From contig CM097888.1 in assembly GCA_044892525.1 (NCBI GenBank), positions 28,024,001 to 28,088,000 on the forward strand: a stretch of 64,000 nucleotides of DNA, given 5' to 3'. The stretch is from Schmidtea polychroa (taxonomy: Eukaryota). Positions 19,954 through 64,000 of the stretch are shown here, piece by piece. Within the stretch, counting starts at the first letter, position 1; every line of letters begins with the position of its first letter. The position numbers were made by a program, and so were the translations under genes. The notes under the pieces are model-generated. The model was not told where the DNA came from. It saw only the letters and a list, made by a program, of their open reading frames with translations, and did no database searches.

Positions 19954-19977
19954 CTTATATACTATTTTCCGTCCAAT
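19954..19977 (-). promoter_or_regulatory. LTR promoter: inverted CCAAT box plus TATATAAG
   Basis: ATTGG followed by TATATAAG on the minus strand; conserved in the second LTR at 42419-42442. Confidence 0.55.
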
Positions 19978-35150: not shown

Positions 35151-35520
35151 ATAAGCAGGTGAGCTCTATTGCTAAAACTACACATTATATTTTCGTTTCG
35201 GGTTTTGGAGCCCTTGGATTTCCACTGCGTGTATATTGTAAGTTGTCAGAATGCTTTTACGTATTGATCAAATTTGAAAATTTATCCTTGAATTTACGAT
35301 AGATACCTATTTCTCCCGCTAGAAGATATGGAGTCAACTCACCGGGTGTGAGGCGTTTTGTAATTTGTATTTAAATAATGGTATGATGTTGTGCATGTTT
35401 GATTGTATGTTGAAATCCTTACTTATACATTAATTATTATTTTTAGAAACTCCTCAAACAAATTAACGTTATAATTTGTTTTAATAATATTTGTGTTTTT
35501 ATAATAAACGTGTTTTTGTT

Positions 35521-38500: not shown

Positions 38501-38711
38501 CCCACAATTTCAAACTTGGATTAACCATCTTAGTGGTCTGGACATGGAGATTCAATACAGAAAAGGTGATAACCACAATAATGCCGACGCTTTATCTAGA
38601 AAAGAATGTGAAACATGTGTTCAATGTCAAATGATTCATGAAAATCCTAAAATGGGTAAATTAAAAACAAGATTGTTGACACTGATGACTGATAATATTG
38701 AAAATATATGG
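35521..38711 (+). mobile_element. Degenerate Ty3/Gypsy element (gag 35521-36585; pol with stops and frameshifts), truncated at 38711 by the giant element's LTR
   Basis: Two CCHC knuckles (CWACHEEGHRRSEC, CAHCKRSGHFKHQC); protease DTG mutated to DT*; ICLDYRALN, MPFG, YLDD; RNase H LDTDAS/TDHKA/NADALSR. Integrase absent. Confidence 0.92.
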
Positions 38712-39250
38712 TGTTGGCGTATGTGGAGAAGAAAAAAAATTATACATGCCTTTCCATCACACCTATCAAGCATCCTGGCTCCGTTATACATTTTCTACAC
38801 ATACTCCAAATGATTGATTGCATATTCCCACATATGAGCCCATGGTGATGTTCCATGTTGGTGCTGCTCACACGGGTCGGAAAAGGTTAGCAGGTGAGCC
38901 CCTGCCTTAGGACTACTCCTAACCCTTTCTCAGTTCGGGTCCCACGGTGCCTTAGAAGGACTTACCCATATACATGCGTGTCACTCGGTCTGATCCTGGT
39001 CCAAAGGAACAACCTTCAACCTTAATTATCTCCATTCCGCAGCATTATCTCATCTACTCTAATTGCGCAAACAAATATATGAAAGCTCGACAAAACTAAA
39101 ATCAAACAGAAAATTTTATTGACACTGAAACGATAAAAATATCATTACTACTAACAGATCAACAACAGTCAAAAAGATATAACATTAGCAACATTCACGA
39201 GATAATTTACAACTCAATGAAGAGGAAATCAAGCTCAATTTTACATCACA

Positions 39251-40012
39251 TTAAACAAAGTTATCCCCATCGGCCAGTATCTCATCTATGTCGACCGGTA
39301 ATCGGCTATCTACAATGTATTTGATGCCCTCAGCTGGAACAATGCGGAAGACTTCCTTTGAGGGGATTGAATGGGAGGACGTTATCTCTTGGATTTTTGA
39401 TTTCGCCGCCGATAAGGACGTCTCGAGTGCTGTCATCGCATCTCGGCGTTTTTGGTTCTTCTCGGCTCGAGTTGGCCGTTTCCGTTTGCGGGTAGTCGGG
39501 GGTTTTTCGGTGTTCGTGGTACCGATTGGTGCTACCAAGATTGGAGCTACGATGGGATCAGTAGGTCCACCTATCTTTGGCTGGTGACATGACAACACCG
39601 GGGGTGGAATGGGCGGCAGTTGTGAGCCGTGCCCCTGGCAGTGCGAGCCGGAAGATGTAGGAGACGGGTGGTGACGAGGAAAGACATTCGTCCCATCCAG
39701 AACGGGGAATTCTCGCACCCGCTTAGCCAATTCTGCCTCCGTATATACCTTATGGAGGGCTTCTGACTGTGCTTTGATGGTGAGCCGCTGACAACGGCTT
39801 TCCTCTAGCAGGCTGTCCCTGCAATGCTCTAATCGGAGAATTTTCTTGCGTTCCTCTTTCATTTGTGGCGGGGAGAACCACGTTCCTTCATAGAGATCAA
39901 TTCTCTTTTTGAGAGCCCCGATATATAAGTGGAGTTGGGCGATATCCGCGTTCTTGTCCGCACAAGAAAAACACGGGCGAAGTTCTTTGGCGTTGTTGGA
40001 CGATGTAGCCAT
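39251..40012 (-). CDS. LTR-encoded 253-aa protein of unknown function (CxxC, coiled coil, Pro-rich linker, basic region)
   Basis: Intact ORF; nearly identical protein in the solo LTR despite many synonymous changes. Confidence 0.8.
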   Translation of the reverse strand: MATSSNNAKELRPCFSCADKNADIAQLHLYIGALKKRIDLYEGTWFSPPQMKEERKKILRLEHCRDSLLEESRCQRLTIKAQSEALHKVYTEAELAKRVREFPVLDGTNVFPRHHPSPTSSGSHCQGHGSQLPPIPPPVLSCHQPKIGGPTDPIVAPILVAPIGTTNTEKPPTTRKRKRPTRAEKNQKRRDAMTALETSLSAAKSKIQEITSSHSIPSKEVFRIVPAEGIKYIVDSRLPVDIDEILADGDNFV

Positions 40013-42418
40013 CTAGAAAATCAATCATTGTTTATATTTACTCGAAGAAACCTCTATCAGTGTGAAGAAAAATCAAATTTTTGGGCATGGTTTTGGAGTT
40101 TGATCAAACATACCACCCAACGATGACCCACACACTTCTTCATCCATCTCTATACGCAGTCATTCAGTTGCAAACATTCAAATCTCTTCACCTGATTCGT
40201 GTAATTTAAGAAAAGGAAACGGGGATTCGTATACCAAAAATTCTTTCTACACAAACCTCGCCCTTTGAGTTTAATTTCGGATGGGCCATTCCCAGGTAAA
40301 ACCCGTCTTTTACTTTATCCCCTTCAACCTTGTTCCCATTAGTATATTTTAATTAAGAATTTTTGCCGATATCATTATGGCAATTCGTCGAGGTAGGCCT
40401 GCCTAACATTACAGAGAAATAATTCACGGCGACGGAATAGATTATTTATGTTTTTATCTCGTTCAAAATTATGGAATTGATCGTGTAATCAGTTGAAAAT
40501 TCAGCTCTAATCTACATCTAATTAATTCCAACAACGCGTCGAAAATCGTCGTCATGGAAAACGTTTACTTGTGATTATGCATTATGATTGACTGTGTAGG
40601 TGTGTCATTACTCCTGGTGGTATCTGTAACTGTATGTTGGCTATCTCCGCGAATGATGGTTTATGCTGTTATGATAAATTATTGTATATCGAGTTGTGTA
40701 GGGGAAATCCATCCCCTTACTTCATCCTATTATCTCGCTATTCTAGAGAAATTTATACCATCATGCCGCTATTACATCACCAAAATCGTTGATTTCCTTT
40801 TACACTGCCCTATGCATATTTGACTGTGGTGCGTGTGTATGTGCATGCTCAAGTCGGAATATTAGCGGTTGCGTAATAGATTCCTCAAATAAGCAGCCGT
40901 AGATGAATCGAAAAATCAGATTAATCAATCTGAGTGGGCGACAACTTCATAGATTATTGGGTAAGCTCAACAATATCATCTAATTTCCTTTTACGATATT
41001 AATTCAGATCAATGACTATCAGCTTATTCATTTGACATTTTCCCAGAAAAGTTAACATGTTATCTCCTTCTCCAGGACGTTATCAGATATCTCCTGTCGA
41101 CTAACTCTACGCAGGCTAATGCAAATCAACTGATTTCGTTATCGTTGACAACTACTGTCTGCGGGCTCGAAGTAAGAATTTTGATAATTTCACTACAAGA
41201 TGTTTACTTCCCTGTCAGCGAGAGATTCTTTATCACTGGCATTGGTGACTCAAGGACGACAATCAAATCGTAAGAGTACATCGACAATGGATGTAGCCGC
41301 TAACATCATGACGGCACAAATCAGACAGAACCTTGTAAACGCAGAGCGTCACCGCAAAATCGTTGGATTTACTTGCAATCTATGGTCGACACCGTTCTTT
41401 CCTAACTACGTCGATTGACCGGCTGAATATCACGAAAAGAATTTTCCTCCTATCTATGTGGATTATCATCGAATCTGTACGAACGTCACTGCCTATCTCG
41501 CTCTGAATTGTCTGCATTCGGAATTCAAATCATCTCTACATCTACTGGGAATCTCGATTTAACTAAATGAACCGATGGTACGCTCTACAGACGATCGCGC
41601 TTGATGAAGGAACGGTCATTTATTAACTGGATGTTCCACCTACTGAGTTTCTTCACCCCTCACGACACACCCAAGAAGGCATTCATTGCTGCCACCTCCT
41701 TGCACCGTCATGAGGGACCAATCAACTCTTTTCCATTCAATCAAATCAACAATATAATAATCAAACTGAATGATAGAAAATGCATAAATAAAATTTACCC
41801 GGCGACCATATCATTTGGATCTCCGAGTATGATGTTGCTCCTCCTACATGATCGAAACCTCATCGTCTCCTTGGTGGATCTCTAATATGACAAATATCAC
41901 TCTCTACAAATATCACATTCTCTTTTCAGCATGTTCGTGATTTCTTATGCATACCAACCTTTCCACGGTGGTGTCCTCTACTGCAGTGCAATTCCAACTC
42001 GTCCACATCATACTGGGAGCTCTCAGATGGTACAGTCGTCGGTACCATGAAGAAAGGCAACTTTTCATTTAAATAAATTTATTATAAGAAATTGTTTTAT
42101 TATATTTATAATGATTAACTAAATTAAACTAATAACCATAAATAAAACAACTGTCGAGGCATACCTTGAGTTTCGAAAACTGAAGTTAAATCGGTTGAAT
42201 TTAAAATTTTTCCCGAATGGATTTGTAGTTTGGCCTCTATATATTTCTTCCTCGGTTTGGTTTGGTAATCTCTGAACTAGTTCGCTGTAGGATAATTAAA
42301 GATTCCGAAATCTGTCAAGTCTGTAGAAAAATTTTTTAAAAGTGGTCGTATATAACGAACCGAAGTTTACCTGTAGAAAAATTTTTTAAAAGTGGTAATC
42401 TACAGATATTTTCCGTTC

Positions 42419-42442
42419 CTTATATATTATTTTTCGTCCAAT
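42419..42442 (-). promoter_or_regulatory. LTR promoter: inverted CCAAT box plus TATATAAG
   Basis: Conserved in both LTR copies; a ~25-bp direct repeat pair lies just downstream in both. Confidence 0.55.
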
Positions 42443-43176
42443 CAGGACACGACTTGTTTGTATTTTTACTATTTATTATTATTTTTATGTTTTTTATTAT
42501 AATATATTAGATTTTAATGACTTAACTTATTTCCTATTATTATTTTATTTATTTTCTTATTTTTATTATTTTCCTCCTATTTTTCCTGTGGATTTATTGC
42601 TACTTTATTGTAATATAATTTTTTGTTTTAATTAGACTTAAAGATAGTTTTATTTTTTATTTATTTCTTAAATTTCTCTTTTATTTGTTGTCACTTTTTT
42701 ACTTATTTTATTCTATTTCATCTGCTGGGTCCTAAATCGCTTTATTTCTAAATCTCAAGGGGTTTATTGGGTTTTATTTAGTTTGTTTTACTTATTCTTA
42801 TTCTCTTATTGATATTTTATTGTTCCTTTTTGATTTATTAGCGAGAATTTGATGGTACTTTATATTTTTATTTTATTTCGTTTATTTTTCAAGGATTACT
42901 TTTCTATTCGCTCCAGTTTTCGAAACTCCACGTTTTAGCCCAACAAATCACTCCGGGGCCCGTTAAAATTGCGCCCCGCAATTCACATAATATCATACGT
43001 TTAACTCATACCTTTTTTCGGCATAACAACTAATTTCACGGTCAACATTCACACAAACATAAAATTAAAATAACTAAATAATACTTTAATTAAACAGATA
43101 AAAGGACAAATATAAGCAAGCAGTGGCCACTTTAGGTGACCGGATTTATACACACAAAGTTTATGAATGGTCGATG

Positions 43177-43803
43177 TCACATGATCTCAAGGTTCGGAAT
43201 GTCTTGGTTGGTTGAATTCTGGGTCGGATGGCTGGTTGAAGTTGTTATCGTGGGGAGCTGGATTGTAACAGGCATTTGGTCAGGAGATAGATTTTGTTGC
43301 ATTTGGTCGGGTGGGTTTGGTTGTTGAAAATATACTGCTCGTTTATGTTTATTTTTCGATCGTGGGTTCTTTCTTTCGTGTTTCTCGGATAGTGACTGGT
43401 TTCTTCTCCATGTTCGATGAATATCATACGCTTTCCAGATGACTAGTGCGCAGATGATAAGAGTTTCACTGATGGTAGTATAGAGTAAGACTTGGCTTTC
43501 TTTTACTTCCTTCTTCATGATGATTTCCTTCAAGGATTGTTGGGTGGTTTGTTCTTGTAAGAGAATTTCGAGCTGTTCGATTTTTTGGGTTTGTAGGTGG
43601 AGTTGCATTTGAAGTTTTTGCCAGACGGCTTTGTTCCAGCATTGTTTCGGGATGTTGTTGGAGAGCTTTCTTTCGCTTTTCAGTTTGGTTAACGGGTTTT
43701 GCTGTTTCTCGGGATTCTCCCAGAATGTTGGGATTGGCTGCCACATGGGTATTCCGTTTATCGCTATCATCATTATTGTCACCAGGGTTGCTCCGAACCA
43801 CAT
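43177..43803 (-). CDS. Accessory ORF, predicted type-I membrane protein (208 aa)
   Basis: N-terminal hydrophobic signal MWFGATLVTIMMIAING; TM LLYTTISETLIICALVIW followed by a basic and then Q/P/T-rich tail. Confidence 0.65.
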   Translation of the reverse strand: MWFGATLVTIMMIAINGIPMWQPIPTFWENPEKQQNPLTKLKSERKLSNNIPKQCWNKAVWQKLQMQLHLQTQKIEQLEILLQEQTTQQSLKEIIMKKEVKESQVLLYTTISETLIICALVIWKAYDIHRTWRRNQSLSEKHERKNPRSKNKHKRAVYFQQPNPPDQMQQNLSPDQMPVTIQLPTITTSTSHPTQNSTNQDIPNLEIM

Positions 43804-43858
43804 ACTACTATACGAAAATTTTTATTTACAATTATTTACATTGATCATTCATCTTTAA

Positions 43859-44560
43859 TTATTGCCGGGTTTTCTTTTTACGGGTTTTCTCGGATGTTCT
43901 CATCACTCTCGTTTCTGCTTTTATTACTCGTTTTCTCAATTCGGGTAGTACTTTTAATTGTTTGTCTCTTTCGTCTAACTGTTGCCTTAGGGTTATTATT
44001 TTTTCTTTTAGTGCTTTTATTTCTTGTGTTGCTCTTTCGAGGTTTTTATGGTTCATTATCTGTAGAAAATCATTTTCCCTTTCCCCGTCTTCTTCGTTGT
44101 CTATTTCCTGGTATTTGTTGTTCATTCGTCTCATTATCTCACATTCTTTCTGTTTTTGGTGTAGTTGGAGTTGTAACTCTTTCAGGCTTTCTTGGTGTTT
44201 CCGTGCCTCGGTTTTCCAATAGTCACTAATCACTTCGTCGGCCTTTCGACTGGCCCTCTCCTGCCATAATTCTTCCGCGATCTTTTCCCAATTTCTCCCT
44301 CGCTTTCTTTGCTCGTGAAGCCATTCGTTTTCTTTCTCTACTTCTTTCTTTACTCCTTCTAACAAGATATATTCTCTTTTCAATACTTTAATCCTTTTTC
44401 GATTATCTCTCCACCTTTCAACTAATCTTTCGTTTTCCTGTCTCTCTTCTTGTAATTCTTCCTTGATAGTTTTCTTCCTCTCCACTTCATCAACTTCAAT
44501 TTCTCCCTCTTCTAACTCGATTATAGATGTTATGCTGGGTTGTCCGTTTTCAGTGTTCAT
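43859..44560 (-). CDS. Accessory coiled-coil protein (233 aa)
   Basis: Intact ATG ORF, E/K/R-rich heptads, same A-rich strand bias as the polyprotein. Confidence 0.7.
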   Translation of the reverse strand: MNTENGQPSITSIIELEEGEIEVDEVERKKTIKEELQEERQENERLVERWRDNRKRIKVLKREYILLEGVKKEVEKENEWLHEQRKRGRNWEKIAEELWQERASRKADEVISDYWKTEARKHQESLKELQLQLHQKQKECEIMRRMNNKYQEIDNEEDGERENDFLQIMNHKNLERATQEIKALKEKIITLRQQLDERDKQLKVLPELRKRVIKAETRVMRTSEKTRKKKTRQ

Positions 44561-44734
44561 TTTCTATAATATATACATAATTAATAATTGCGCTACAGTG
44601 CGGCTTATACTTATACATTTATATGTTATTTTATAATCAGGGTTACAGTCCCTTTCATACTTTTACTGTACCATTAATTTTTTTGGTTGGGATACAGGTC
44701 CCGATTTTTATATTTTTTATCTTTCCTTTTATCT

Positions 44735-45772
44735 TTATACAAAGGTCTCTTCCTGGCCTACATATCCCTCATCGCTTTCTACTGACGTTTGTAATTGGAG
44801 TGCGATGGGATCAAATGGGATGTAGTACCGGGGAATCTGCGCTCTAAGTTCTTGCACTTCGTCTCTTAGTGCTCTTGACACGTTAAGTTCCTCGTCCAAC
44901 AGGTATGTTAGATACCTGGTTTCATCGTCTCTTACCTCTATCTGTTTTTCTAGCTCTTCCGCTTTTTCGCCGTTTTCCCATTTCTTGATCTCTATCTCCA
45001 GATTTTTAAGATTTTCGTTATACATTTTCCTTTCGTTTTCTAACTTTTTGTTTTTCCCCGCCAGTACCATATTTCTCTGCTCCAGAGCTCCTTGGTATCC
45101 GTTGACATCTCGTTCTAGTTCTGCGACCTTATTCACCAGTTCCACGAGTCGTCCTGACTGTTGAAGTATCAGTTCTTCCATTGCGGCATTCTCGTGCTCC
45201 CTTATGGAGATTTTCATGGCTAGATGTCTTTCAAATTCCATGGCTTTGGTCTGCCATGTTTGGCTTCGGGCCGCAATCTTTCTGAGCCGTTTCAGTTCTT
45301 CTCTCATGACCAGATTTTCCTCCCATTTGCCTTGTTCGCTTTCGTATTCTAATCTCATAGGCAATTCTTTCATTTCTTTTTTCATCTCTTTGTTCTGCCG
45401 CTTCCAGTTTCGGGCTTCTGCCAATAGGTGATTCATTTTCCTTCCTTCCTTTTGTTTTTCTGCTTCTCGTTTTGTGTTTTCGTCCGTCAATCGTTTCCGT
45501 GCTTCCTGCACTAACTGTTTTAAATAGTGGCTGTGCGCTTCTTGGCGAGTGTTTTCCAATGATGCCCACTTAGAGGCTCTTTTGCATGCTTCTGCTTCGG
45601 CTCTTAAATTGTTTACTAACCACTGATATTTGTTATTCTCGTATTCCCTGGCCTCTTCGAGATGGTTGTGGGTCTGGTTCGTCAATTGTAACATTACTTT
45701 GACCCATTTTCCCTTATGGATTTTATTGACTTTGGTTTCGTGGTTTGGGGCTTCAGTTCCTTCTTGTGTCAT
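44735..45772 (-). CDS. Accessory coiled-coil protein (345 aa)
   Basis: Intact ATG ORF, long heptad-rich helical sequence. Confidence 0.72.
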   Translation of the reverse strand: MTQEGTEAPNHETKVNKIHKGKWVKVMLQLTNQTHNHLEEAREYENNKYQWLVNNLRAEAEACKRASKWASLENTRQEAHSHYLKQLVQEARKRLTDENTKREAEKQKEGRKMNHLLAEARNWKRQNKEMKKEMKELPMRLEYESEQGKWEENLVMREELKRLRKIAARSQTWQTKAMEFERHLAMKISIREHENAAMEELILQQSGRLVELVNKVAELERDVNGYQGALEQRNMVLAGKNKKLENERKMYNENLKNLEIEIKKWENGEKAEELEKQIEVRDDETRYLTYLLDEELNVSRALRDEVQELRAQIPRYYIPFDPIALQLQTSVESDEGYVGQEETFV

Positions 45773-45992
45773 CTTTGTCTAAATAACGATATCATTAACT
45801 TAACGTTGTACGCTTATATCTGGTTTATTAGTTATTTATTTTTATAATTCGTTATAGGAGTTGTTTTAGGAGTTTTTCGCTTAAGTTTACCTTTGGTAGA
45901 TTTGGGGGGAATTTTTCTACACTACTATATAATATTTTACTGGATATATACGCCGATATTTACAATTAGTATATACAAAATTATTCGTCTCT

Positions 45993-47381
45993 CTACTCAG
46001 TCCTACTCTTCCCGTCTCGCCTCACCGCTATTTTCATGTATATAGTGTCGTTTCTCGTCATGTCTTCTACTTTCCGCTGTAGGATGAAATTTGGTGCTCC
46101 AGTTGCTGGTCCTTCTTCTTCCAAGGGCCTTTGGTAACATACGAGGTTTCCCGCTGTATGGAAACTCTGTTCGTGTATACTTTGATAGTTCATCATTGCG
46201 AGGTCTATTTTTGCTTTGAATGGCCATTCTATTAACTCGTCGTATGGCCCTTTGCACATCAAGAAGAATACTGAGAAATGCGTTCCGTATGCACTTCCAT
46301 CCCCATTGGGGTATGCTTTCATTTTCATTTTATACCCGTTTTTCCATGAGTAGAATGCTGGACTTAGTAATGTTGTATCCTTTCCATTTCTCGCTCTCTG
46401 CATCTTCTCTTTTACTCCCGTTATTTTCCATATGTACGGAGCCGTAGGTATTAATTCGTTGAGGTTTAATTCGCTTACTTTTTGATGTAGTTCTTTCACC
46501 ATAATGTTGCTAGTTTCTACTAGATCTGTCTGTATCTTTGTACTTGTTCTCGCCTCTTCAAATGCTTCCTTTTCTTCCAATAGTTCTTTTACCAACGCTT
46601 TTAGCGAGACTATTTCTCTTTCTAAGTTTTCGGTTTTCCTTTCGTTTTCCTGTAATACCGTTGACCATATTTCCGCGTGTGTTGATACGTTTTCTGCTAG
46701 ATGTTGGGGTAATTCCCCTCGGTGTAATTGTTTCGGACATCCCCATTTTCCTAGCACACACGTTATCTTTTTTCTTTCACACTCTTTTAGATGTTGAGCG
46801 AGTTTTATTACTCCGGGTTTATCGCATTTGTTGGGGCATTCTCCTCTGAATTCTGCGCACACTTTCTCCTCTTGTATGTTGTGATGTTGACTGATTAGTT
46901 TCTTCCAGGTGTCGTTTTCTCCGCAATACTCGCATTTCTCTAGTCTTTCTTCGCATCGACTTTGATGTTCTGCTTCTTCATTGACTTTAATCTCTTCTTG
47001 GCAACGTTTGCATTGACTGATTTTATACTCACATTGCTCCATATGTTGCCTCACTTCCCATATCACTCCTCGCCAATTACATGGGGTGTTTTTACATCCT
47101 AGGTTTGCATTCAACATATCTTTTACAGCTGCTTTATCTTCGTTTGTATCTCCCAAACTTGTTATCATTGTTTCTTTGCATACTGGGCACCATTGTGGTC
47201 CCTTCTTTATTATCTCCTCTACACATTCTCTGCACATTCTGCATCCACATCTGGTTTGGTGAGGTTCTCTTAATAAGCTCTTGCATATTCCACACGTTAC
47301 ATGGTTGTGTATTCGAATTGTGGTGGACTTTCTGATTTGTTCAACAATTTCTCTGAATTCTTCTCGTTGTCGCTTATCCAT
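45993..47381 (-). CDS. Intronless TRAF-family protein (RING, TRAF zinc fingers, coiled coil, MATH), 462 aa
   Basis: CGICKSLLREPHQTRCGCRMCRECV..CPVC; zinc fingers HMEQCEY..CKRC; MATH YIWKI..SPAFYS..GYKMKM..YPNGDG..GTHFSVFF..KGPYDELIEWPF. Confidence 0.95.
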   Translation of the reverse strand: MDKRQREEFREIVEQIRKSTTIRIHNHVTCGICKSLLREPHQTRCGCRMCRECVEEIIKKGPQWCPVCKETMITSLGDTNEDKAAVKDMLNANLGCKNTPCNWRGVIWEVRQHMEQCEYKISQCKRCQEEIKVNEEAEHQSRCEERLEKCEYCGENDTWKKLISQHHNIQEEKVCAEFRGECPNKCDKPGVIKLAQHLKECERKKITCVLGKWGCPKQLHRGELPQHLAENVSTHAEIWSTVLQENERKTENLEREIVSLKALVKELLEEKEAFEEARTSTKIQTDLVETSNIMVKELHQKVSELNLNELIPTAPYIWKITGVKEKMQRARNGKDTTLLSPAFYSWKNGYKMKMKAYPNGDGSAYGTHFSVFFLMCKGPYDELIEWPFKAKIDLAMMNYQSIHEQSFHTAGNLVCYQRPLEEEGPATGAPNFILQRKVEDMTRNDTIYMKIAVRRDGKSRTE

Positions 47382-47470
47382 TTCTATAATTATATATATA
47401 CATATATTCGTTACTGGTACAGTTTCGTATTTTTATTTACATTTATTTACATTGCTATTTTAGGTTATAT

Positions 47471-47830
47471 TTATTGGCTGGAAGAGTCGGCCTCTTGTCC
47501 GCCCTCTTCCCTGTTGGTTAACCATTCTGACCAGTCTTCTATCTCCTCTCGCTCCATCTCTTCCGCGATTCTTATTAACTCCTCTTCTTGCACCTGGCTG
47601 TATCGTGATATTCGGTCTATCTCTCGCTGCATTTGTTCTATTTTCATTCGTTGGTCTTCGATTATTCTTACATAATTGAAGCCTTTATTTAAACTTTCGA
47701 CTAAGCTTCTTTGTACAGCGAGTCCTTGTTCCTGTAAATTCGAAATCACTTGAGTTAACATTGCACATTGTTGTTTCCACATCTCCTCGGTTGTTGTACT
47801 GTGGTTTACTTCCTCGCCTATTCGCTCCAT
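47471..47830 (-). CDS. Accessory small coiled-coil/acidic ORF (~119 aa from ATG 47830)
   Basis: Open frame 47471-47854; first ATG at 47830; helical, acidic C-terminus. Confidence 0.55.
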   Translation of the reverse strand: MERIGEEVNHSTTTEEMWKQQCAMLTQVISNLQEQGLAVQRSLVESLNKGFNYVRIIEDQRMKIEQMQREIDRISRYSQVQEEELIRIAEEMEREEIEDWSEWLTNREEGGQEADSSSQ

Positions 47831-47998
47831 TCTTAATTTATATATACTTTTCAATCCTTATCTAATTTTATTTTCATATTAATTATCCCCATCATTATAT
47901 ACTATTGATACCGCGCTTATATAAAAATATAGAATACTGTTATATAAATAAATATTTCCTACTTACTTTTTACAATCTATATACAGTCATAATCCTTT

Positions 47999-50900
47999 CT
48001 ATATACGTGAGCTTGGAGGGCGCTGAGCATTCCAGGCCTCCACCCACTGTTCCTGCTTGATATTACTTGGTCGTTTTACACGATGTTGAAAATTTCTTAT
48101 TCTGGCCATTTCTAGTTCTCCGTGATGCCGTCTATCTTTGATTATTTTTATTGTCCCCCCCGTTATGATTAAAAAGGCCCCTGTTATTATTATGCCGCTG
48201 ATCCACATCATCTGTTTTATGCTTATAATTTCCGCTTTTTCCTTGCTCGTTATTGTTGATATTGCTTCTGTGCTTTTTAGATTACCGTCTTTGCCATTTC
48301 CTTTCATCATTCCTCGTATTCTTGCTATTTCCTCGTTCATACCTTCCTTTGCCATTTTTTGTATTTTCTCCATCTCCTCCTCGGATACATAATTGTCTTG
48401 ATGTTTCTCACTGTTTTTCTTGCGTTTTCCTTGCTCATCTTTTTCATCATCGATTTTTCTTTTCTTCCCTCTTTTCCCAGGGTATCGTCGACATTCTCTC
48501 GCTGTATCTTTTCTCCAGATGCATATTGTGTATTCTTTTGGAGGTTGTTGCTGTATTACATATTGTAGACAGTCTTCACCCGGTCTTAATCTTGCGATGC
48601 AGACTTTGTGTTCTTTTCTTGGCTGGAGTTGCGTTATCACTACCTCACCTCCTTTTCCCAGGTGTACCTCCTTCCCTTTGACTTTCGTTATTCTCTTTCC
48701 TTCTCGATTTCGGTATGCTTCTTGTATTCTTACTTCCGTTATTGGTTCTGCATCTTCATTTTTTAACACTAGTCTCTGATAAGCTCTAGACATACATCTT
48801 CCTAATATACACCTTTCTTTTAAATCCCATTCTTCTTTTAGATCCCATTGCTGCTCTTGTACTTGTTTTTTCTTTTCTTGTTTTAGTTCTTCCTCTTTGT
48901 TGTCCTTATTTTCCGTTTCTTTGGCTTCTTTTATCGTTCTCATTCCTCCCTGGGCTGTTATCATTTCCACCATTGTTAATACGAGTATCATTATCATCAT
49001 ATTTGTCTCCATTTCTTTGTTGGTAAAAAGTAGACATACCCTCTGTTTTCCACTATTCGTCTTTTCTTCTTGCTTTATTCGGTTTCTCGGGTTGTTTTCC
49101 TCTTTTTTCCTACTCGCGTCGTTATTTTCTTGATTATTCTCCTCTGATTTCTCTTTCTCTTTATTCCCGTTTCGACTTTTTTCATTATTATCGTCGTCTT
49201 TATCGTCTTTATCTCCCCCGCTATCGTTTATAATGTCGTCCTCGACATTTATATCATTCAACAATCTGCGGTATGCCGTTAGCACTCTGTTTCTTGCTAA
49301 TTTTGCTTCGAGTTCGAACTCCTTTCTGCCTGTTGCTACATGTCTCTTTCTATTCCATTCTTTCACTAATTCTCTTAATTGTATCCGACGATGTTTCCCG
49401 ATTCGCTTTTGTTCGTTTAGATTCTGCGTGAATTTGAGATCTTCCCTGTTTAATACGATCATTATGATTTTCGGAGTTCCTCCTTTTGTTAGTGTATTTT
49501 TAACCATAGCATTTTCTCCGTTTTCGTAGAACTCATTTATATTTATTGCATATTTATTGCTTTGTGGTATTCTCCATGTTAGCAGCAACTTCATGGCTTC
49601 TAAGTTCATCCGTATCGTGTTCCATTGGAACTGTGACGTGTTTTTACAGATATTTTCTACCTCAGTTCTTGTAGCATTTTTACAAATGAATCTAATCATT
49701 TCCAAGTTTGGTTGTATTGTTGCCCAATCCATGGCAGAATTTCCTTCGTTTGATATTTCGTCAAGTCTTGATCCCGATCGATGTAGTATATGTAATGTTT
49801 TCGGGTGTATATTTGTTATGGCTGCATACATCATTGCTGTTTCTCCTTGTTCATTTTTTGCATTAGATTCTTCTCCGAAGTCTCTAAGGATTCTTATGAT
49901 GGTTATTGCTCTGTTTTCTTTTGCTGCTAAAATGGCTTGTTGTAATGGTGTTCTTGAGTCTTTTGTTGGTAAGGTGAATGCTAGTGGTATAAATGTTTTT
50001 ATTTTTCCTATGTCTAGATTTGTGGTCTGATCTCTTGCGTAGGTGTGTACTGTTTTGGTTATTTTTGCTAGTATCGCTTCATCGGATAGATCTTGCATTT
50101 CTTCAAAGAATACTTCTTTAGCCTTACGTACTACTATCTCTTGGTCGGAGTTTATTGTCTTTGGTTTACTTGTTGTTGCTATATCGGTTATTGGTTGATC
50201 GACTTGTTCCTCAGACTCTCTTGCTTTTACTTTCTTCCTTTTTATCTTTTTCTTGTTCGAATTGTTAATGCGTTCCTCTGCCGTTAGAACTTGAATAATG
50301 CTTAGGTAAGTTTCTCGAATGTTGTTCATATTTTCCATCATATATAATACATTCACGGTTTCCCAAAATTTTACTTGTACTTTATCGGTAAATTGAGATA
50401 TAGCTTTTTCGAAGTTGATAATTCGTTTTCTGATTAGTTGTTCGTCTTTGTGATTTGAGAACTTTATGCCACGTTGTAGTAGTTGATTTGGAATTTCGAA
50501 TAGGTGATGTCCTCTCATCGCTTCTCTCATCAAGGTATTTTCTCCTTTGGTAAATGTTTCGTTTATATCTACCATATAATCGTTTTTGATCGGGTTCCTC
50601 CATGCAATTAGTATTCCAGTAATTGTTATTAATTTCTCTTTGATTGCAGTTAATAGCCCGTCATACATGTTTCCTATCTCTCTATTATCCTCATATGATA
50701 ATAGATCTACTAAGATTATGAAGGCTTCCGTACTTTTCCCTTCGATTGCATGATGTAGTGCATTTTTCTGGTTGTGGTCTTGTGTGGTTATCTTTGACCC
50801 AGTTTCAAGTAATGCGATGATAATATCTTTAGCTTTATCCCGATTGGCTGCTATCATTAGTGGAGTGTAACCTTGGTTGTTTTCTTGATCTGTCGAAATG

Positions 50901-53900
50901 TTACAATCGCGAAATGCTTCAATTGTTTCTAATATCTGTTCGTTACTACCCACCTTTAAAAGCTTGTGCAGGGGTGTGTCTCCGTAATGGTCTGTGATCG
51001 TGAATAATATAGGCCATTGACTTTTAACTACCCTGAGCAATGGGTGTGTTCTTTCTCGGTTTGCATAATTTTCGATCATTGTTAGCAGACCTCCCAATAT
51101 CTCAAAATCTAATCTGTCTTCTGCCCATCCGGGCATTTTAACTTTTACTTCCTTTATGATTTTCTCGGCTTCTGATGGTTGTAACCCTAATCGATTACCT
51201 GTTGGTTCGTTTATTTGCTGTAACATGTTTATTCTATACGTTTGTGATCTTGTCGTTAGTGTACGTCCTTCTGGTTGACTGGTGGCGGTTTTCGGAATTG
51301 GCTTACATCGTGCAACATTTACGTATATTGGTCTTGTAAAAGGGTTGTTCACTAATCGTACTCTTACATTAGTTTCTCCGACGAATAGAATCTCATACGG
51401 CCCTTTACCGTTTCGTTGTAATTTTTTGGTGGTTCCTGGAATTAATTCTGGTGTTTCAATCATCACCCAATCGCCTGTTTGAAACGTATGCTGTTTGACG
51501 TTTTTCTTTCTATCATGTAACTCTTTGTAACTTTCTTGATAAAATTTTATATTCAATCCTGCGGTTTCCCAGATTTCCTGCATTCTTTCCTTGAACTTGG
51601 TTACATAATCGTCTATTTCCATGTATTGTGATATCGGTGGCTGATATTCTAAATCCATTGGCATATTGCATTCTCTGCCGTACATCAACTTGAACGGACT
51701 CATCTTTGTGGACGCGTGAATCGACATTCTGTAAGCCATTAGACATAATTTTATATATTCATCCCAGTCTCGTTGATGACGATCGACATAATTTGATAAC
51801 ATTTGAATCAGTGTTCCATTGAATCTTTCTGTCATACCATTAGTTTGTGGATGGTACGGTGATGTTCTTAATTTTGCGATCTTGAAGTAGTTGGTGACTT
51901 CGCTCATTATTTCGCTCATGAAATTCGTTCCTTGATCCGTCAGTATTTGTTTCGGCGTTCCATATCGACAACATATTTCCTCTACTAATATTTTTGCGAT
52001 TGTTCTTGCTTTCTGATCTGCCATTGCGAATGCTTCGGGGAATTTTGTCAAATAATCTGTGATTACCAATATATATATATTTCCTCTATCTGATTCTGGT
52101 AGTGGACCGACTACGTCCATTGATATCATTGTCATTGGTTCTGCTGGTACTGGCATTGGCTTTAATGGTGCCTTCCATTTTGTTCCCGTGTTTTTTCTGG
52201 TTGCGCAAGTTATGCAATTTTTCACCCATTCCGTTACATCCTCGGTCAATGTAGGCCAAAAATATTTTTGTTTCATTCGTGCCAACGTCTTTTTAGATGA
52301 CATATGTCCTCCGAGTCTTCCGTCATGGTATTGTGTTAGTAGATCTTTACGTCTATTCTCGGGAATGCACATCAGTCTTTTCTCGCCATCCATTATCAAT
52401 AACCAATCTTTCTCGATAATATATCGATGTCGATGTTTATCCATATGCTCCTTCAATTTTTGATCTTTCTCATATACCTCTGCTTTCCCTGTTTTCGCAT
52501 ATTCAATGATTTGCTTCAACTCTGTATCCTCTTGTTGGTCTTTCCGTAATTGGCAAAAATCTAAATCTTCTGCTACCATCAGACATATTCGTTGCATTTC
52601 GTGATCTACTAAATCTGGAAAGATAAATCTGGACATACAATCCGCATTGGCATTCGCTCTTCCCGCTTTGAATTTTATGAACGGTGAATATTCTTGTAAC
52701 TGCATTGCCCATCGCATCAATCTACTTGAAGCTTCTTTGTGTTGACCAAGCCATACTAATGGTTGATGATCCGTGGTGATACATATTTCGTGTCCCCATA
52801 ACAAATATCGAAAATGTTTAATTGCTTGTATGATTGCTAACGCTTCTCTCTCGGTTACGGAATAGTTTTTCTCGTGCTTTTTAAACGTTCTACTGTAGTA
52901 TCCAATCACTCTTTCTTTTCCTTCTTCATCCAGTTGTCCTAATATTGCTCCGGCTGCATATCCACTTGCATCTGTTGCTAATAGGAACGGTTTCTTGAAA
53001 TCAGGATGTACTAGTATTGGGGCTTCAATTAATTTATCTCGCAATGTCTCAAACGCTTTTTGTTGTTCTGCACCCCAAATAAATGAAATATCCTTTTTCA
53101 CTAATTCCTGTATTGGTTTCGCAATACCTGCATAGTTTTTGATGAATTTTCGATAATATCCGCATAATCCGAGAAATTCTTGAACTTGGGTGACAGTTTT
53201 TGGTGCTGGACATGTTTTTATTTTTTCTATGTTTCTTGGATCTGGTTCTTTGCCTTTTGCTGACACTATGTGTCCTAAGAACGTAACCTTTTCTTTTGCC
53301 CAATCACATTTGGATGGTTTAAGTTTCAGTTTCCATTGTCGTAATCGAACGAACACGTTTCTGATATCTTCCAAATGTTGTTCGAAAGTTGCTGAATATA
53401 TTAATAAATCATCAATATATACCATACATTGCTTGATCCCGTGTGTGACAAAATTCATACATCTCTGGAATGATGCTGGGGCATTGGTCAGTCCGAACGG
53501 CATTTTCCTGAATTGGTATAGATCTCGGCCCAATGTGAATGCTGTTTTCTCTTTGTCTTCCTCCTTGACTTTGATCTGCCAATATCCACTTTTCAGATCT
53601 AAAGATGTAAAATATGCGGCCCCCTGTAACATAAGTAACATCTCATTGATGTCTGGTAAAGGGTATGTGTCTCTTTTTGTTACTGCATTTAATTTCCGAT
53701 AATCGATACAGAATCTCTGAGTACCGTCTTTTTTCTTCACCATGACTACTGGAAATTGCCATGGCGAACAACTTGGTTCGATCACTTGTGCATCTAGCAT
53801 TTTTTGTACTTCTGCTTCGGCTATCTCTTTTTGCTTCTCTGCTAGTTTGTATGGACGTAGTGCGATTGGAGTTTCGTCTATTAATGGTATTGCGTGTAGT

Positions 53901-56900
53901 GTAACATCGCATGCTCCCAAATCTAAATCCGAAATTGCGAATATATCTTTATATTCTATCAATAATTGTTGAAGTCTCTCCTTTTCTTTTTCCGTTAGCA
54001 AGGTGCTATCAATTATCCATAATTCGTCCGCTTTCGTTGTTTCGTTGGTGATTTTTGGTAATTCGATGTCTATCATGGGTGTCAATCTACCCAATCTTTC
54101 ATTTTCATATATGATCTTGTCTTCTTCCTCGAAATTTGTGATGTTAATTGGTATTTCCCCGTCTTCATTTATTGTTATTATTTCTCTTGCTAATGGTAAT
54201 TCTCGTCGTTTTTCGAATGATTTGCTTGGCTCAAAAATGACTTCTCCTTCCATTCCTGCATCCACTTTTATTTGACATATCATCTGTGATTTTGCGGGTA
54301 CAATTATTTTCTCCGGACATCTAATTATTGCGTTCATCTTGCATATTCTACCCATTTTGTCTTTTAGACACATTGTTGTTAAATCGATTACTACTTCCTT
54401 AAACAATTCCGGCATTAAATCCGTTCCGATTATACATGGTTCACTCAGTTTGGGTATCACCGCTAGATACGTTTCAATTTCGTTATCCTGATATCGTAAC
54501 GTAGTCCACCATCTTCCTACTACGTCTACGGTTTCTTTACTGCATGCAATAATATGGATAGTTGTTTGTTCGATATCTTTCCAACATTTACTGGGTATTT
54601 GGTTTATTGCTATTGCTGATACGTTTGCTCCGGTATCTATCATTGCGCTTGTCTCTTTCCCGTTGATTTGGATCATGACTGTTACTGCCGCACCTCCTGG
54701 TGAACTCATCACTGCTATCGTTCTTACGTCGTCCGCTTGGTCTACACTTTTCGTTCTTCGGGTCGGCATATAGTTCATCCCTGGTTGACTTGGTAACTGT
54801 GGATACATATTTTGTGTCATGGTCAAAGCTGTTTGTTGTCCAACGATATCTGGTGGTATATAACTTCCGTTGGCTATCCAGGTATTTGTTTTTTCTTTCT
54901 CCCAATATGGTGCTGTTTCTATTGGCTTTTCATTCGGGTTTCTACTTGGATATGGGTATTTGTCATTCCCGTTGTCGTCATCATCACTATCGCTGCTGTT
55001 TGATCGATTCCTAAATCTGTCTAAGAATTTTGGTTTGTTCTTTTTCAGTTGCGTCCTTGTTGCTTCATCATACATTGTTTTCCGAAATCGTCTACCGACT
55101 TCCTCGTCAGTTCCTTTTATTTTTGTCAGTATTTTGATCAATCGTTTTATTCTATGTATGTCTTTAGAATGACCGTGCAACACCATTGTTTTTGCCAAAA
55201 ATGGTAGAAAGCCTACTATCAATTTCCAATTTACCTTCTTTTCTCTCTTATAGATATCAAAACACGCTAACATTTGAGTCAATATTACTCTAACTATCTG
55301 GATAATAAGAATGATTCCCAATATTCCTGCCATCATTTGACCGAACACTAGAAATCTTCCCCACATTGCTTTCATCATGTTTGACGTGGCTTGTTGAAAA
55401 TGATCAGGTGACAATAATAGTTCGTAATTGGGGCCTGACTGGAAATTCGTTCCCCCAGTTATGGTAACCATATTCGATAGAATGGATTCCCGTCTTGCTG
55501 GGAATAATACGTTTAATCGTGCCGTTTCTAAATCCTCTGGTGAGTACATACCTGCTTTTGACACATCAATTGGTTTGAAATCTTGTTCTGTTGCGAGTTC
55601 TATTAGTCCAAACTTTTTAGGCTCTTGTACTTCGGTTTTTACTGGTAACATTATCCATTTCCCATCGGGTTTTTCATATAACGGTCCGTATGCATTTGAA
55701 CAGTTAAAGGTGTTCGGATAAAATCCAATTGGGTTCATGATTCGAGTGACGGGTTGAACGAATCTGTTTCGCCCTTTGTAACTAATTTCCAACTCGTTTG
55801 CGCATTTCCCTGGTGGAATTGTGGGCTTTCTTGGCAGTCGCGCAAATGTCTTGGTACATGCATATGTATACATTACCTCTCCCACCATTCTACCAAAATG
55901 TCCATCCGGTAACGGGAGTGATGGCATTGTGTTATCTGGGTGTGTTATTGCGATGGCTAATTTTGTTTTTAGTATCTCTTTATTCAATGAACAGTCATTT
56001 TGTATAAGATCGTAATACACTTTTTGCATTGTCGTTTGTCCTCGGTGGAACAAGAAGTCCATCTTATTATTGGCATACAGGTACAATTTTACGTCCTCCG
56101 TTGCTACCTTTCCCACTGCTCGGTCTATTACTTGCCTTGACATGTAGATACCTGCGTAGTTCGTCCGGTATACTATACTGTCACATTTGGTGGTCTCTTT
56201 TTCTCTAATGAATCTCATGCCGATGTCTGGATCATCGGTAATTAATGCCGTTGGTGTTTTTTGGGTTGTGAGTCTCTTTTCTTTGGGGGATGGCGGAACT
56301 GGTTTCCCATTTCGCATCCTTACGTTTCCATTCTCTTCATCGTCATCCTCGTTTTCGTAAATTTCTCCTTTTACTTCATTGAATAGAGCACTTTTTAACA
56401 ATTGGAGTCGGCATTTTTGGGTGTTAGCTTCATATATTATAGTCGAAATCCCCGTTCTACACACGTTTTCCGTAGCTCTGCATGCTGGGTTGGTTTTCAT
56501 TTGATAGTTGTTTGCGTCGAATTGTGCTTCGTATTCCTTCAACTCCACTGTGTAGGACTCAATTACTACTACTCCTGATATCACCTCTCCTCTGATCGTA
56601 TATGTGCCTCCGTTACATGATCCATCCGTTGATTTTACTCGTCCGGCTACATAGATACTTTCCGTCTTGATCATTCCGCTTTGTCCGTGTATTGTTACTC
56701 CATCCCTGATTCTCATCGCTCCGGTTCTAAAAAGCTCTTTACAGTCTTCCCGTTGTATAGGTACTATTTCTTTATCTAATCCAGGTAATATGAGGGTTGA
56801 ATATGAGTATTGTCCACAGTAATATGCCAACACTTTCTTCGATACTACGCATTCTCTAGCTTGCGTTCTAATGAAATCTGATTCTTGGTATACGTGATAG

Positions 56901-59900
56901 GAGACTTTCTTTTTTACTATATCTAATTTATTCGGAGACGCCTGTCTACATTCCTCTATATCTCTCAGGGAGTATCTTTCTCCTATTATCGAATTGTCAC
57001 AGTCGTAAATAGTAAATCCCGCGGCTCCACTGGTGCAGAGCATCCATATCATCATGGTCATCATTAGTGAATTAATCGACGCTTTTCTGCTGGCTGGGTC
57101 TTTCAATGGCAATTCCCATTCTAGCTTGTTTAGTAATTTCTTCAACCGAATTTGCATTGATCTCTCTTGCTCGTTTTTTCGTGGCGCTTGTATGAGTCTT
57201 TTCCACCCACCGGCGCGGATAATATGTGGTTCGATTGTATTTTCGATGATTGTAACGGTCATTTCTACATGATTTGCGAATTGTTTGTTAGGTATTTTCC
57301 TCGCTGCTAATCCCATCAAATTGTACATTAGATACGTTAATACTACTAAATGATGTTCGTCGTCGTTTGCGTTTAAAGTTAATTGTTCAATTACTCTTCT
57401 TGTCTCTTCCCAATCGGTTTTAGTGGTTTTTGTCTTCTCTTTGATTAATTTCGGAATTATTCCGGATATTGTATTCCATAGTTGTCTGGCGTCTACGCTT
57501 GCTACTTTTCGTTGCCATAACCGTCGCAATTGTGGGTTCGTTATTATTAGCATATCTTTTACTAGCTCTCGTATCCATTTTTCGCCTCTTTCGATAGTTG
57601 GCTGGGCCTCTTTTAGATCCCACACTATTTTATCCAGTTTCTCTAATCTGACTTGTCCTTGTTCTTGTTTCAGTTGTTCTCTAGTTTTAAATTCCGGTTT
57701 TTCTCCTTGCTTCTTGGGTCTCCCTTTTGCCCGTTTTTCCATCATTGTTCCGGCTTCCCTTGTATTTTCATAATTCGGGTTTCTCTCGTTATCCGTTCTT
57801 GGCAATGAGCTATCGTTGTTTCTCAGCCATTCGTTCCATTCGTCTATTATTTTGTCCGTTTGACCTTCTGGTGTTGCTTTCGTTGGTCCTTTCTGTCGTT
57901 GGAATTGTTCGTCGGTTTCGGTTTCTGTTGTATTATCGATAATCTCCTCGATACTCAGCTTATTTGGCTGCTGATAGCTAGTTGACGGTTGGCTTGTTGT
58001 CCATATTTCGGCTCCTGTCGGCCATCTTACCAGAATTGGTGATCTTTCTCCAGCTCCTTCATCGCTGTCTTCCAATATAATTTCCTCGATTTCCTCGGTT
58101 TCATTCGTTTTACTTGCCACTTTGTTAGGGCTTGGTGTACTCAAGCTACCTTTCGTAGGTTTACTGGATTTGCTCTTCCTTTTAATCGGTTTTCCCAATG
58201 TTTCTGCCATTGTCAATACATTGATCTCCCCCAATCTCATGGGTGTTATTCCGACATCTGCATTATCATCCAACGATTTTCCGAATAGTTGTAGGTGAAA
58301 TGGAGTTTCGTATGCTAATTTCTTTTTTAACTCTCTGATCTTTGTTGTTGGATGTACTTCTGTATCCTCAATGCTTTTGTCGGGATACTTGACTCGGATA
58401 CGATACCTTTCCTGGGTATCTTGTGCCCATTCTTGGTTTCTCCATTTCCTAATAATTTGTTCTAGCTGTTCTGGGTACCATTCGTTATATTGTCTGTATT
58501 CCTCAATCGCTTTCGCCATTTCTCTTAGATTGTGGATATTCTCTGATGTCTTTAGGATGATGTTAGCCAATGCTATTACTTGACGTTTTTGATTTTTTGT
58601 TCCCGTTGCTAAGATATCACCTAATTGTTTATATCTTTCCTTCTCTTCTCGTTCTCGAGCTTCCATCGCTTCTTCGCTGTCCATATCGGCATATTCGCGT
58701 TCTTTCTTTCTCATCGCATGAATATGTCTGGTTTCCGTTTCACTTTCTGATGTAACATCCGTTTCGCTTTCGTCGTCCGATGTCGATTCTATTTCGTCCT
58801 CTTCGTATTTTGGAGGTTCATCTTCCTCTTCTTCTGATTCGCTTTCTATCTCACCAATGTCTGTTTCCACGAAAATCCCTTTCCTGATTTCCCATTCTTT
58901 GTTTTCCGCATTCCACGTCCTTTCCCATGGGGTTCGTCTGCAGGATCTAACACTTAGTTTCTTTATTTTTCCTTGAAGCTCTTTTTCTTTTAGCCACTGT
59001 TGATGAATTTCAATTATCTCTACTGATTTTTGATATAGCGTTTTCATCCTGTCTCGTATTTCTTTCTGGTATGTTATATCTCTTGTTCGGAATTCGTCCA
59101 TGGGCAATATTCTGATGATTTGATGATTATCCCACATTCCCATTTCGCTTAGCGAGGTGTCGTCTTCGGCCCGTAATATTATTTTATCGTACATCATGAC
59201 TACGTCATCTATCATCCCGTCGCTACTCTCGCTTCGTACTTTTTCCGTTATCTCTTGGTTTATCTTGGTTACTAAGTCATCCACCGTACTCTGATTACTC
59301 ATCTTTATTCGTCGTTTCTCCTCGTTTGGTAACCATATGGTTATTTCTAATTTCTGCGGTTGCGTTTCTTTCAACCTTCCATATTTGTGGATCAAATTTA
59401 TGGTTCTCCAATCGCTCATCCTGAGCAATTCTGTATCTCGTAATCGGCTCATTAGTTCATGCATGTCTGGAGTTCGTCTTGCTATGAGTAAATCCCAGTT
59501 ATCTTCGACTTGTTCTTGAATTTGTTTGATTAATTTATCTAGATTTCGTCGCAAGGTGCATTGTTTTATTTGTTCCAGCTTCAGCTTGATGTTAAAATCA
59601 TACTCGGCCTTGGCGTCTTTAGCCCATTCGTGAATATTTGCTGGTTGCTTCTCTTTATACAATTTCAATATTTGAGTTTCTCCTGGCCAGATCAATGCAT
59701 CTATTAGGTGCATGTCTGGCTTAATTTGTTCTCCTTGATATTGATATAAATACTCTTTCTTTCTCGAGCTGCCCAAATGTTCTCTTATCCAATCAAAAAG
59801 CTCGTCTGTGACTGCATTTTTTATCCATATTCTCTCGAGTCCTTTACTCGTTCCGATTTTTATTACATAGCGTGTTGTCTCCGCTTGTTTCATTTTTTCC

Positions 59901-62425: not shown

Positions 62426-63089
62426 TCATTCCTTTTTGCCACATTCAAGCACAGACACCGTTTTAGGGCCTCTGTTATACTTCTCTTCATTTCCCCTCAT
62501 ACACTTCTTCGCGGAATATAATTACCCATCAACCCATATTTTTCGTCGATTTTAAATTATCTACTTGGGGTAGTAACAATTATCTATATAGTCGTATAAA
62601 TTATCTATAGTTAGCATTTATAATATCGATAGGTCGTTGTCAGTTACTGCTTATTACCTCCCATATTTTCTTAATCCTTTTACGCGGTTCCGCTATTTTA
62701 CTTAATCTTTCATCTCTGTTTCCCCTTATTTGGTTCTACTCTGTAACCAAAACAAAATTCGTTTAACCGGTTTAAACCAAAAAAATTCTGTAGAACTTTG
62801 TCTACTTATCTGGGATCCCTTTTAATTAATTAATCACCTTCCTCTTTTACTCATCACTTATTCTTTATTTTCATTATCTCTTTAATTCATTTTCCTTTTC
62901 AGTTTCTCTTTCTCACTGAAAAAAAAATTTCATTATTACCTCCCACGAGCTCGTTTAATCCTTTCTAAATTCAAATACCATATTTCAAACTCACTTTGCT
63001 TCTAGCTAGCTTTAATATTCCATCTCACTAGTAATTTAAATGTTATCAACTTGTAGCTTGAATGCTATCTCACTATTACTTTAGGCCTT

Positions 63090-63440
63090 TACGACTGGCT
63101 GGCACTTTTCAACAGCTCAATCTTCTTCTCCTGACCGGTTGGACTATTCAACAACTCGATCTTACGACTGGCTGGCACTATTCAACAGCTCAATCTTCTT
63201 CATCTCCGAACTGGCTGGACTTTTCACAGCTCAGTTTTAATTTTTCCTGACCGGCTGGACTTTTCAACAGCTCGGCCTTAATATCTCCGACTGGCTGGAC
63301 TTTTCACAGCTCAGTTTTAATTTTTCCTGACCGGCTGGACTTTTCAACAGCTCGGCCTTAATATCTCCGACTGGCTGGACTTTTCACAGCTCAGTTTCAA
63401 TTTCCCTGACCGGCTGGACTTTTCAACAGCTCGGCCTTAA
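63090..63440. repeat. Tandem repeat in the element's 5' leader (alternating ~39-40-bp subunits with core GAC(T/C)GGCTGGACTTTTC(A)ACAGCTC)
   Basis: About 9 subunits seen directly; the later ones form near-identical ~79-bp dimers. Confidence 0.9.
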
Positions 63441-64000
63441 TGTCTCTAACTCTGCATGCTTCCGTTCCTTTTCTGTCTTTATTCTATACTGTCATCTTCC
63501 TATTTTTACTTTTATTTGTCGACTTAATCTGTACCGCTTTGGAAGGTTTCCCCTTTCCCCCCTTGCTTAAAACGCAAAACGATCGCATTGATCCATTTCT
63601 ACATTGGTATGGTGATCAGCCATACCGCAGAAACTTTTCAATATTCGCGATGGTACCTCGCCTTACATCTCTTACTCGGGGTGATCGGTTGTCCCTTCCC
63701 AAATGGTTCCAATATCGTACCTCCCGAAGGTGGCTCGGTTTATTCCCCCTTTAGCACTATGATGGGACTAGTTCCACTTTAAATAATCAATTTAAATTTT
63801 TAAAATGCCCTTTCTTCATGGTGAAAATTATAACAACACAAATCGATTTATAACTTCGTATAATGAAATGAATGCACAGAAAGGATTTATTAGTTATTTA
63901 CTCCACATTACAGATAATATACGCTATCATTATAAAACATTACCGAATTAATTCAGAACAAAAATATCAAAAATGTTTAATCTAATTGTTAATCATCCAG

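Follow-up and report, generated by a model that had tools for sequence, protein, structure and literature searches.

A 64,000-nucleotide stretch of the planarian Schmidtea polychroa (contig CM097888.1, positions 28,024,001 to 28,088,000; hereafter the window) contains a giant Gypsy-type retroelement, and inside it lies what reads as an entire TRAF gene. TRAFs trimerise, bind adaptor tails through MATH, their receptor-binding part, and recruit or act as ubiquitin ligases. The locus raises the question of whether such a gene is a passenger or a working part of the element, where it came from, and what it could do in a host cell.

The initial annotation, made from the letters alone, had claimed a complete RING-zinc finger-coiled coil-MATH gene without introns, and the translation bears this out: a single open frame of 462 aa runs on the minus strand from an ATG at 47381 to a stop at 45993, uninterrupted by a stop codon or intron, and Pfam recognises its domains (Table 1). 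The RING reads CGCRMC, as claimed, and its zinc ligands are eight cysteines (C30, 33, 45, 47, 50, 53, 65 and 68). Behind it we count five zinc fingers, a number read from the ligand pattern; a zf-TRAF_2 match at aa 167-230 is below cut-off, and the Cys/His columns are near-invariant in an alignment of 89 TRAFs. The Pfam MATH match spans aa 316-453 (E 9e-25). The frame thus has the features of the family, a C-terminal coiled coil with MATH/TRAF-C and an N-terminal RING, here an all-Cys variant, followed by zinc fingers. Among solved structures, the C-terminal half is closest to TRAF3, TRAF2, TRAF1 and TRAF5, and the RING-zinc finger half to TRAF6, TRAF5 and TRAF2.

Table 1. Features of the TRAF gene and the surrounding element, in window coordinates.
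Feature	Position	Strand	Evidence
TRAF ORF, 462 aa, accessory ORF 2 of 5	45993..47381	-	Pfam, solved relatives, model
RING, aa 30-68	47178..47294	-	zf-C3HC4 Pfam match above cut-off
Five TRAF-type zinc fingers, aa 96-235	46677..47096	-	Cys/His columns
Coiled coil (long helix), aa 232-310	46452..46688	-	structure model; trimer interface in model
MATH / TRAF-C domain, aa 316-455	46017..46436	-	Pfam, solved relatives, Foldseek
AT-rich spacer, 89 nt, with TGTA/AATAAA motifs	47382..47470	-	copy comparison
ORF1, 4808 codons stop to stop, first Met 61870	47999..62425	-	Pfam
Accessory ORF 1, 119 aa from ATG, helical	47471..47830	-	family B homologue, same slot
Accessory ORF 3, 345 aa	44735..45772	-	homologue in family B
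Accessory ORF 4, 233 aa	43859..44560	-	weak family B homologue, E 3e-5 to 1e-4
Accessory ORF 5, 208 aa, hydrophobic stretches	43177..43803	-	reading frame
3' LTR, 4234 bp, TGTTGG...CCAACA ends	38712..42945	-	partner LTR comparison
Target-site duplication ATGG, 4 bp	38708..38711	.	repeated beyond far LTR

We modelled the protein from the 89-row alignment (mean pLDDT 93; a model from a 5-row alignment had reached only 49 and was replaced) and obtained a 79-residue helix followed by a MATH sandwich that Foldseek matched to TRAF2 and TRAF3 (E ~1e-17). Three copies of aa 250-457 were predicted to form a homotrimer with a score of 0.84, where the best of three controls scored 0.00, with contact agreement of at least 98% and pLDDT 87. 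Of 30 solved pairs, 21 passed the mark applied (7 of 16 among animal pairs), and of 23 single chains none did. Because TRAF trimers have already been solved, this pass may come from model memory; the model shows likeness to TRAF trimers and is not proof of binding.

The surrounding element is 30.5 kb long and has the design of the giant Burro-type Gypsy elements of planarians. Its LTRs (4234 and 4235 bp, the 5' one just outside the window at window-equivalent 64968-69202) differ at 2 positions and are flanked by the duplication ATGG, and the element is very young; 4-bp target duplications were found at three further copies too. ORF1 encodes, in order, gag, zinc knuckles, a weak Bcl-2-like stretch, a mononegavirus-type fusion glycoprotein as env, protease, reverse transcriptase, RNase H, integrase and ankyrins. 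The Bcl-2 Pfam match, at aa 1691-1741 before env, is under cut-off (E 0.095), and Pfam gave no MATH match in this ORF1. The TRAF had been placed between pol and the LTR: it is indeed co-oriented and ahead of the 3' LTR, but as the second of five accessory ORFs and so not directly between the two. Accessory ORF 3 matched no Pfam family, and the 3' LTR itself contains a 253-aa ORF (39251-40012). The claim that the TRAF has the A-rich strand bias of the element also stood. Its AT skew is 0.40, with third-position A 0.48 and T 0.14, and that of ORF1 is 0.37 (A 0.47, T 0.18), whereas seven host single-frame TRAFs have skews of 0.095-0.14; in coding-strand composition the gene matches ORF1 and is unlike each of the 13 host genes measured.

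Several other features lie in the window. The leader region of the element, ahead of ORF1, has tandem repeats of 73-80 nt (63089-63448). At about 16200-20480 there is an older relic of a related LTR, apparently solo and ~73% identical to the element's own, and pieces of another Gypsy element (35488-38813, plus strand) adjoin the insertion site. We further noted a Tc1/mariner-type transposase (23879-25042, minus strand), a piece of a hAT transposase (26612-27865, plus strand) and an exon with a GTF3C1 winged-helix match (5497-6387, minus strand).

The refuting outcome named in the initial annotation, a TRAF unique to this locus, did not occur; the genome shows it at more than a hundred others. 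Of 361 DNA candidates 40 were scored, and every one is full length at 99-100% identity; the same holds, at 91-100%, for all 92 scored protein matches (the best of 1870 candidates), 84 of which have no stop. An exact 20-mer from the TRAF occurs at 113 sites and one from the integrase at 109, with none for the controls. We fetched 40 copies from the middle and bottom of the scored protein-match list: integrase and ankyrin lie upstream in 38 of them, and the neighbouring small element ORF is present in all 40. On contigs C1-C3, where the list of sites is complete, 85 of 99 TRAF sites pair with 85 of 96 integrase sites at a spacing of 3.8-4.6 kb. Every one of the 14 unpaired TRAF sites is embedded in element sequence, ten as judged from their fetched surroundings and the other four from the copy comparisons; none is free-standing. 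The 11 integrase sites without a pair comprise eight that do have a TRAF, two in truncated elements and one that has lost it, so that the TRAF is found downstream of integrase at 93 of the 96 sites. The TRAF is a fixed part of this Burro family, which we call family A, in more than 100 copies. Not every copy needs it, since it can be lost (as at locus L130, where it is absent, and at 3 of 96 integrase sites overall). We rejected a free-standing host gene struck by the element, as the TRAF copies move together with the element.

Two side observations concern variation within the family. Loci L068, L134 and L135 form a diverged subfamily with unchanged gene order and an open TRAF frame, in which the TRAF is 69% identical and synonymous sites are saturated. 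In addition, two public runs have contigs that join sequence ~3640 bases apart (window 43792-47481), skipping the TRAF and two neighbours; the junction falls between similar spacer motifs, with short sides of 22 nt, and could represent a TRAF-less variant.

A Pfam MATH search (1551 candidates, 150 scored) brought out a second Burro family, family B. In the two copies fetched, a MATH domain lies inside ORF1, and a separate full TRAF occupies the same slot as in the window element, preceded by a homologue of accessory ORF 1 (28.8% identity, E 1e-14). The two families are 57% identical in the ORF1 core and 32-33% in the TRAF. One family B element (L062-L066, G000:C1:21.53-21.56 Mb) is 35 kb long with LTRs of 4755 bp at 99.98% identity. 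In the copy scanned, a 391-aa gene with BIR and RING domains (IAP) directly follows the TRAF (L064:8607-9785, plus strand). The window element has neither BIR in its scanned ORFs nor MATH in ORF1, and family B carries both; because of this difference we regard the window element as a sister family to Burro1/GYPSM1, compared by its published description.

In a 40-row tree of hand-picked sequences (4 Burro, 11 host and 25 library proteins), the TRAFs of the two families form one clade (100/98). This clade is sister to a clade of single-frame host genes (including L067) that contains Dendrocoelum TRAFs (91/87, unstarred). Composition is a caveat, as the Burro proteins fail the tree's test for it and A and B may be drawn together artefactually, and a tree of MATH alone gave no resolution. 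An AU test did not reject nesting of an intron-bearing host array with family A (p 0.075). The Dendrocoelum TRAFs are the nearest named relatives; among the best 150 library representatives there was no close relative, and the homologous-protein search returned 21 distant proteins at 23-29% identity. Since the A and B TRAFs share a slot and form one clade, it is likely that the gene was captured a single time, from among flatworm TRAFs and before the families split. That the capture was old also accords with a TRAF less alike between the families than the ORF1 core, and with its wholly element-like composition.

That the TRAF is a host-derived gene carried as cargo, as the initial annotation proposed, is supported by the Dendrocoelum relatives, by the shared Cys-for-His RING and by the 113 exact-motif sites. 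Two of the marks it had offered did not hold. Cysteine in place of histidine does not distinguish the element, since 27 of 27 host RING frames examined have it too, and lack of introns does not mark transduction, since in nine host TRAFs a single frame spans RING through MATH. Among library relatives that match the motif, 15 of 99 have the substitution, including Dendrocoelum and a crinoid TRAF3-like record. We rejected the variant as an innovation of the element, given its presence in host RINGs and in the crinoid record; the element TRAF inherited it.

The copies allowed us to ask how strongly the protein is constrained. Counts were Nei-Gojobori-type tallies against the window copy, with one of 41 sequences (1388 nt) dropped. 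Variants common to at least 2 of the 39 other copies gave a pN/pS of 0.135 and singletons 0.33; MATH is the most constrained TRAF domain, at 0.071 for shared variants. These copies had been chosen by protein score, which biases the ratio downward, and for this reason we repeated the count on six copies reached through the integrase motif instead of the TRAF, obtaining 0.044-0.123. The family B pair gave 0.105. At the same 40 loci the integrase has a ratio of 0.012, the ankyrins 0.054-0.085 and the ORF1 tail 0.164, so that selection on the TRAF is weaker than on the integrase. The 28 zinc ligands are retained in 39-40 of 40 copies, and at L068 the frame is open at a saturated synonymous distance (dS ~3.7). 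Across copies, then, the ratio is 0.04-0.16, that of purifying selection: the TRAF is selected during element replication and does not hitchhike.

The gene may also be equipped for separate expression. A splice-acceptor-like TTATAG stands 2 nt ahead of its ATG, with an AG conserved in 40 of 40 copies as well as at L068. Acceptor-like AGs occur 0-6 nt ahead of all five accessory ATGs in family A and all six in family B (shuffle p 0.010 and 0.012; one family B start codon was picked after the sequence had been seen), and 9 of these 11 sites read YAG. The AG follows an AT-rich tract, and most spacers (window 43804-47998) have TGTA and AATAAA-type signals. The LTR ORF likewise has an AG 0-6 nt ahead of its ATG (40013-40030), and the spacer layout resembles that of an operon resolved by splicing. 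Contigs from public runs (three guessed to be RNA, one of unknown kind) cover the stretch, a coverage that cannot show transcription or splicing. From the sequence we infer that each accessory ORF may give a separate spliced or trans-spliced mRNA, using the AG ahead of its ATG.

What would the protein do? The reading we favour, and hold to be probable, is that the TRAF is a fixed, selected accessory gene, likely from a single old capture, that likely acts as a trimeric adaptor or ubiquitin ligase and so alters cell-death or innate-immune signalling in the host. The protein is predicted to trimerise and to bind adaptor tails through MATH, and would then recruit, or itself act as, a ubiquitin ligase, so that host cell-death or innate-immune signalling, the candidate pathways, would be altered in cells that express the element. 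Judged from the accompanying cargo (Bcl-2-like, ankyrin and, in family B, IAP; family A is without an IAP gene), the effect would most likely be pro-survival or immune-damping. The one published viral TRAF is pro-apoptotic (PMC3352826), and the effect could also go in that direction.

The most serious competitor, which we think unlikely, is that the TRAF serves the life cycle of the element itself and leaves host death and immune signalling as they are; it could ubiquitylate or scaffold Gag or Env, assist budding or drive the turnover of restriction factors. Purifying selection by itself shows no more than a need for the protein in the element lineage, and ubiquitin-like domains are reported in Burro ORF1 (PMC6431247). 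The receptor-groove motifs, moreover, are unlike those of vertebrate TRAF2-like rows, but these differences are partly common to host planarian TRAFs. That MATH is the most constrained domain speaks against this reading, and the Bcl-2-like and IAP co-cargo points to death signalling.

The initial annotation had further suggested that part of the planarian TRAF expansion could be retroelement cargo. We found at least 631 element-borne MATH sites: 113 in family A (exact), 236 family B TRAFs and 282 MATH domains in family B ORF1, the last two counts allowing up to one mismatch and having their surroundings checked in just two elements. A search with a host-type query yielded 1477 candidates, of which 150 were scored; 91 of these were short-frame rows, one of them probably Burro, so that host-type loci number at least ~90, about 35 of which we inspected. 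Large host-type arrays, with RING and MATH in separate frames, lie at 1-5 Mb and 105-124 Mb of G000:C2, and ~70 of the 91 short-frame rows, counted by eye, are on C2. Most TRAF-domain DNA copies found are element cargo. The published S. mediterranea expansion is given as 121 MATH domains in 99 transcripts (PMC6109357) or as 282 MATH contigs (PMC7586133). Near-identical element copies would collapse in such transcript sets and ~90 diverse host loci would not; since these loci, mostly in C2 arrays, exist apart from the element, Burro is not needed to explain the published expansion.

An alternative that we consider improbable is the reverse flow, in which Burro seeded the host expansion and the host TRAFs, both those in a single frame and those in arrays, descend from element copies that were domesticated. 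Single-frame host TRAFs are numerous, their clade is the sister of the Burro TRAFs at 91/87, the AU test does not reject the nested array, and three host-type loci (L074, L075 and L077) have Burro-LTR-like pieces within a few kb. In the free tree, however, no host row falls inside the A+B clade; the host genes are host-like in composition (7 of 7 and 6 of 6); none of the 14 TRAF sites without a motif-paired integrase is free of element sequence; and the sister clade is old, as it includes Dendrocoelum genes. Weakest is the idea of a recently transduced host mRNA without function for the element: single-frame host TRAFs could serve as donors, yet unless copy choice is to blame, against which the integrase-selected copies speak, the selection counts (0.04-0.16) refute it, the frame has stayed open across a saturated synonymous distance and two families at 32% identity, and the host rows compared, on long tree branches, include no close donor, so that it has hardly any standing.

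Much of this fits what is known of Burro. Passages of PMC6431247 describe Burro/GYPSM1 as longer than 30 kb, with LTRs of 4-5 kb and an ORF1 of ~4800 aa that comprises gag, pol, ankyrins and a Bcl-2-like motif, with env placed between gag and protease; MATH_TRAF_C is reported at two places, the ORF1 polyprotein of Burro1 and an accessory ORF of the element from Dugesia tigrina, and interference with apoptosis and ubiquitylation is proposed. The window element matches this account in size, long LTRs, target-site duplication, single ORF1 order and MATH cargo in an accessory ORF. It differs in that those passages speak of the MATH_TRAF_C domain only, whereas here there is a whole RING-zinc finger-coiled coil-MATH gene, and in that the D. 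tigrina ORF is called upstream, whereas the window TRAF is downstream of pol. The passages on Burro are without a copy census, selection test or tree, which are given here. MATH/TRAF cargo in Burro is thus already published, and a whole, selected TRAF is a fuller form of that known cargo. Our literature search, which covered few subscription papers, found only PMC6431247 to tie TRAF to Burro-type elements. PMC11410931, PMC8532177 and PMC13563047, as far as their relevant parts go, provide context: BURRO1 is expressed in the intestine after smedwi-2 loss, in a passage that does not mention TRAF (PMC8532177), and TRAF homologues are TBK1-induced, in one that does not mention Burro (PMC13563047).

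Planarian host TRAFs (Dendrocoelum TRAF-2/-4/-5, and Smed-TRAF-1/2 and -2A/B, PMC7586133) share architecture, a length of 450-490 aa and the Cys-for-His RING with the Burro TRAF, which is set apart by its long branch, its A-rich coding strand and its many copies inside LTRs. Vertebrate TRAF2/3/5 are the best sequence and fold matches for its coiled coil and MATH, with a like predicted trimer; their serine-rich groove loop is replaced in the Burro protein, and at RING ligand 4, where Burro has Cys, 84 of 99 motif-matching library relatives have His. ISKNV ORF111L, of a large DNA virus of fish, is likewise a TRAF-like protein of a genetic parasite acting on host death signalling; it is reported to bind TRADD and promote apoptosis (PMC3352826), and the likeness is one of description.

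A wider reading can be put forward tentatively: Burro would be both the main store of TRAF-domain DNA and a virus-style counter-defence, in which the TRAF, with IAP and Bcl-2-like partners and through separately spliced or trans-spliced mRNAs, might keep element-expressing cells alive, and its transcripts might figure in published TRAF lists and in PIWI-loss phenotypes. Planarian TRAF counts, probes and RNAi constructs are worth checking against Burro ORFs. To a specialist, the cargo as such will be unsurprising. A 2019 review called for a test of Burro meddling with apoptosis or ubiquitylation; our selection counts are indirect support, and the stand-alone TRAF is a clean gene for testing it. 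An element that keeps a signalling E3 adaptor, its activity predicted, under selection in two deeply split families resembles a large virus with host-modulating genes.
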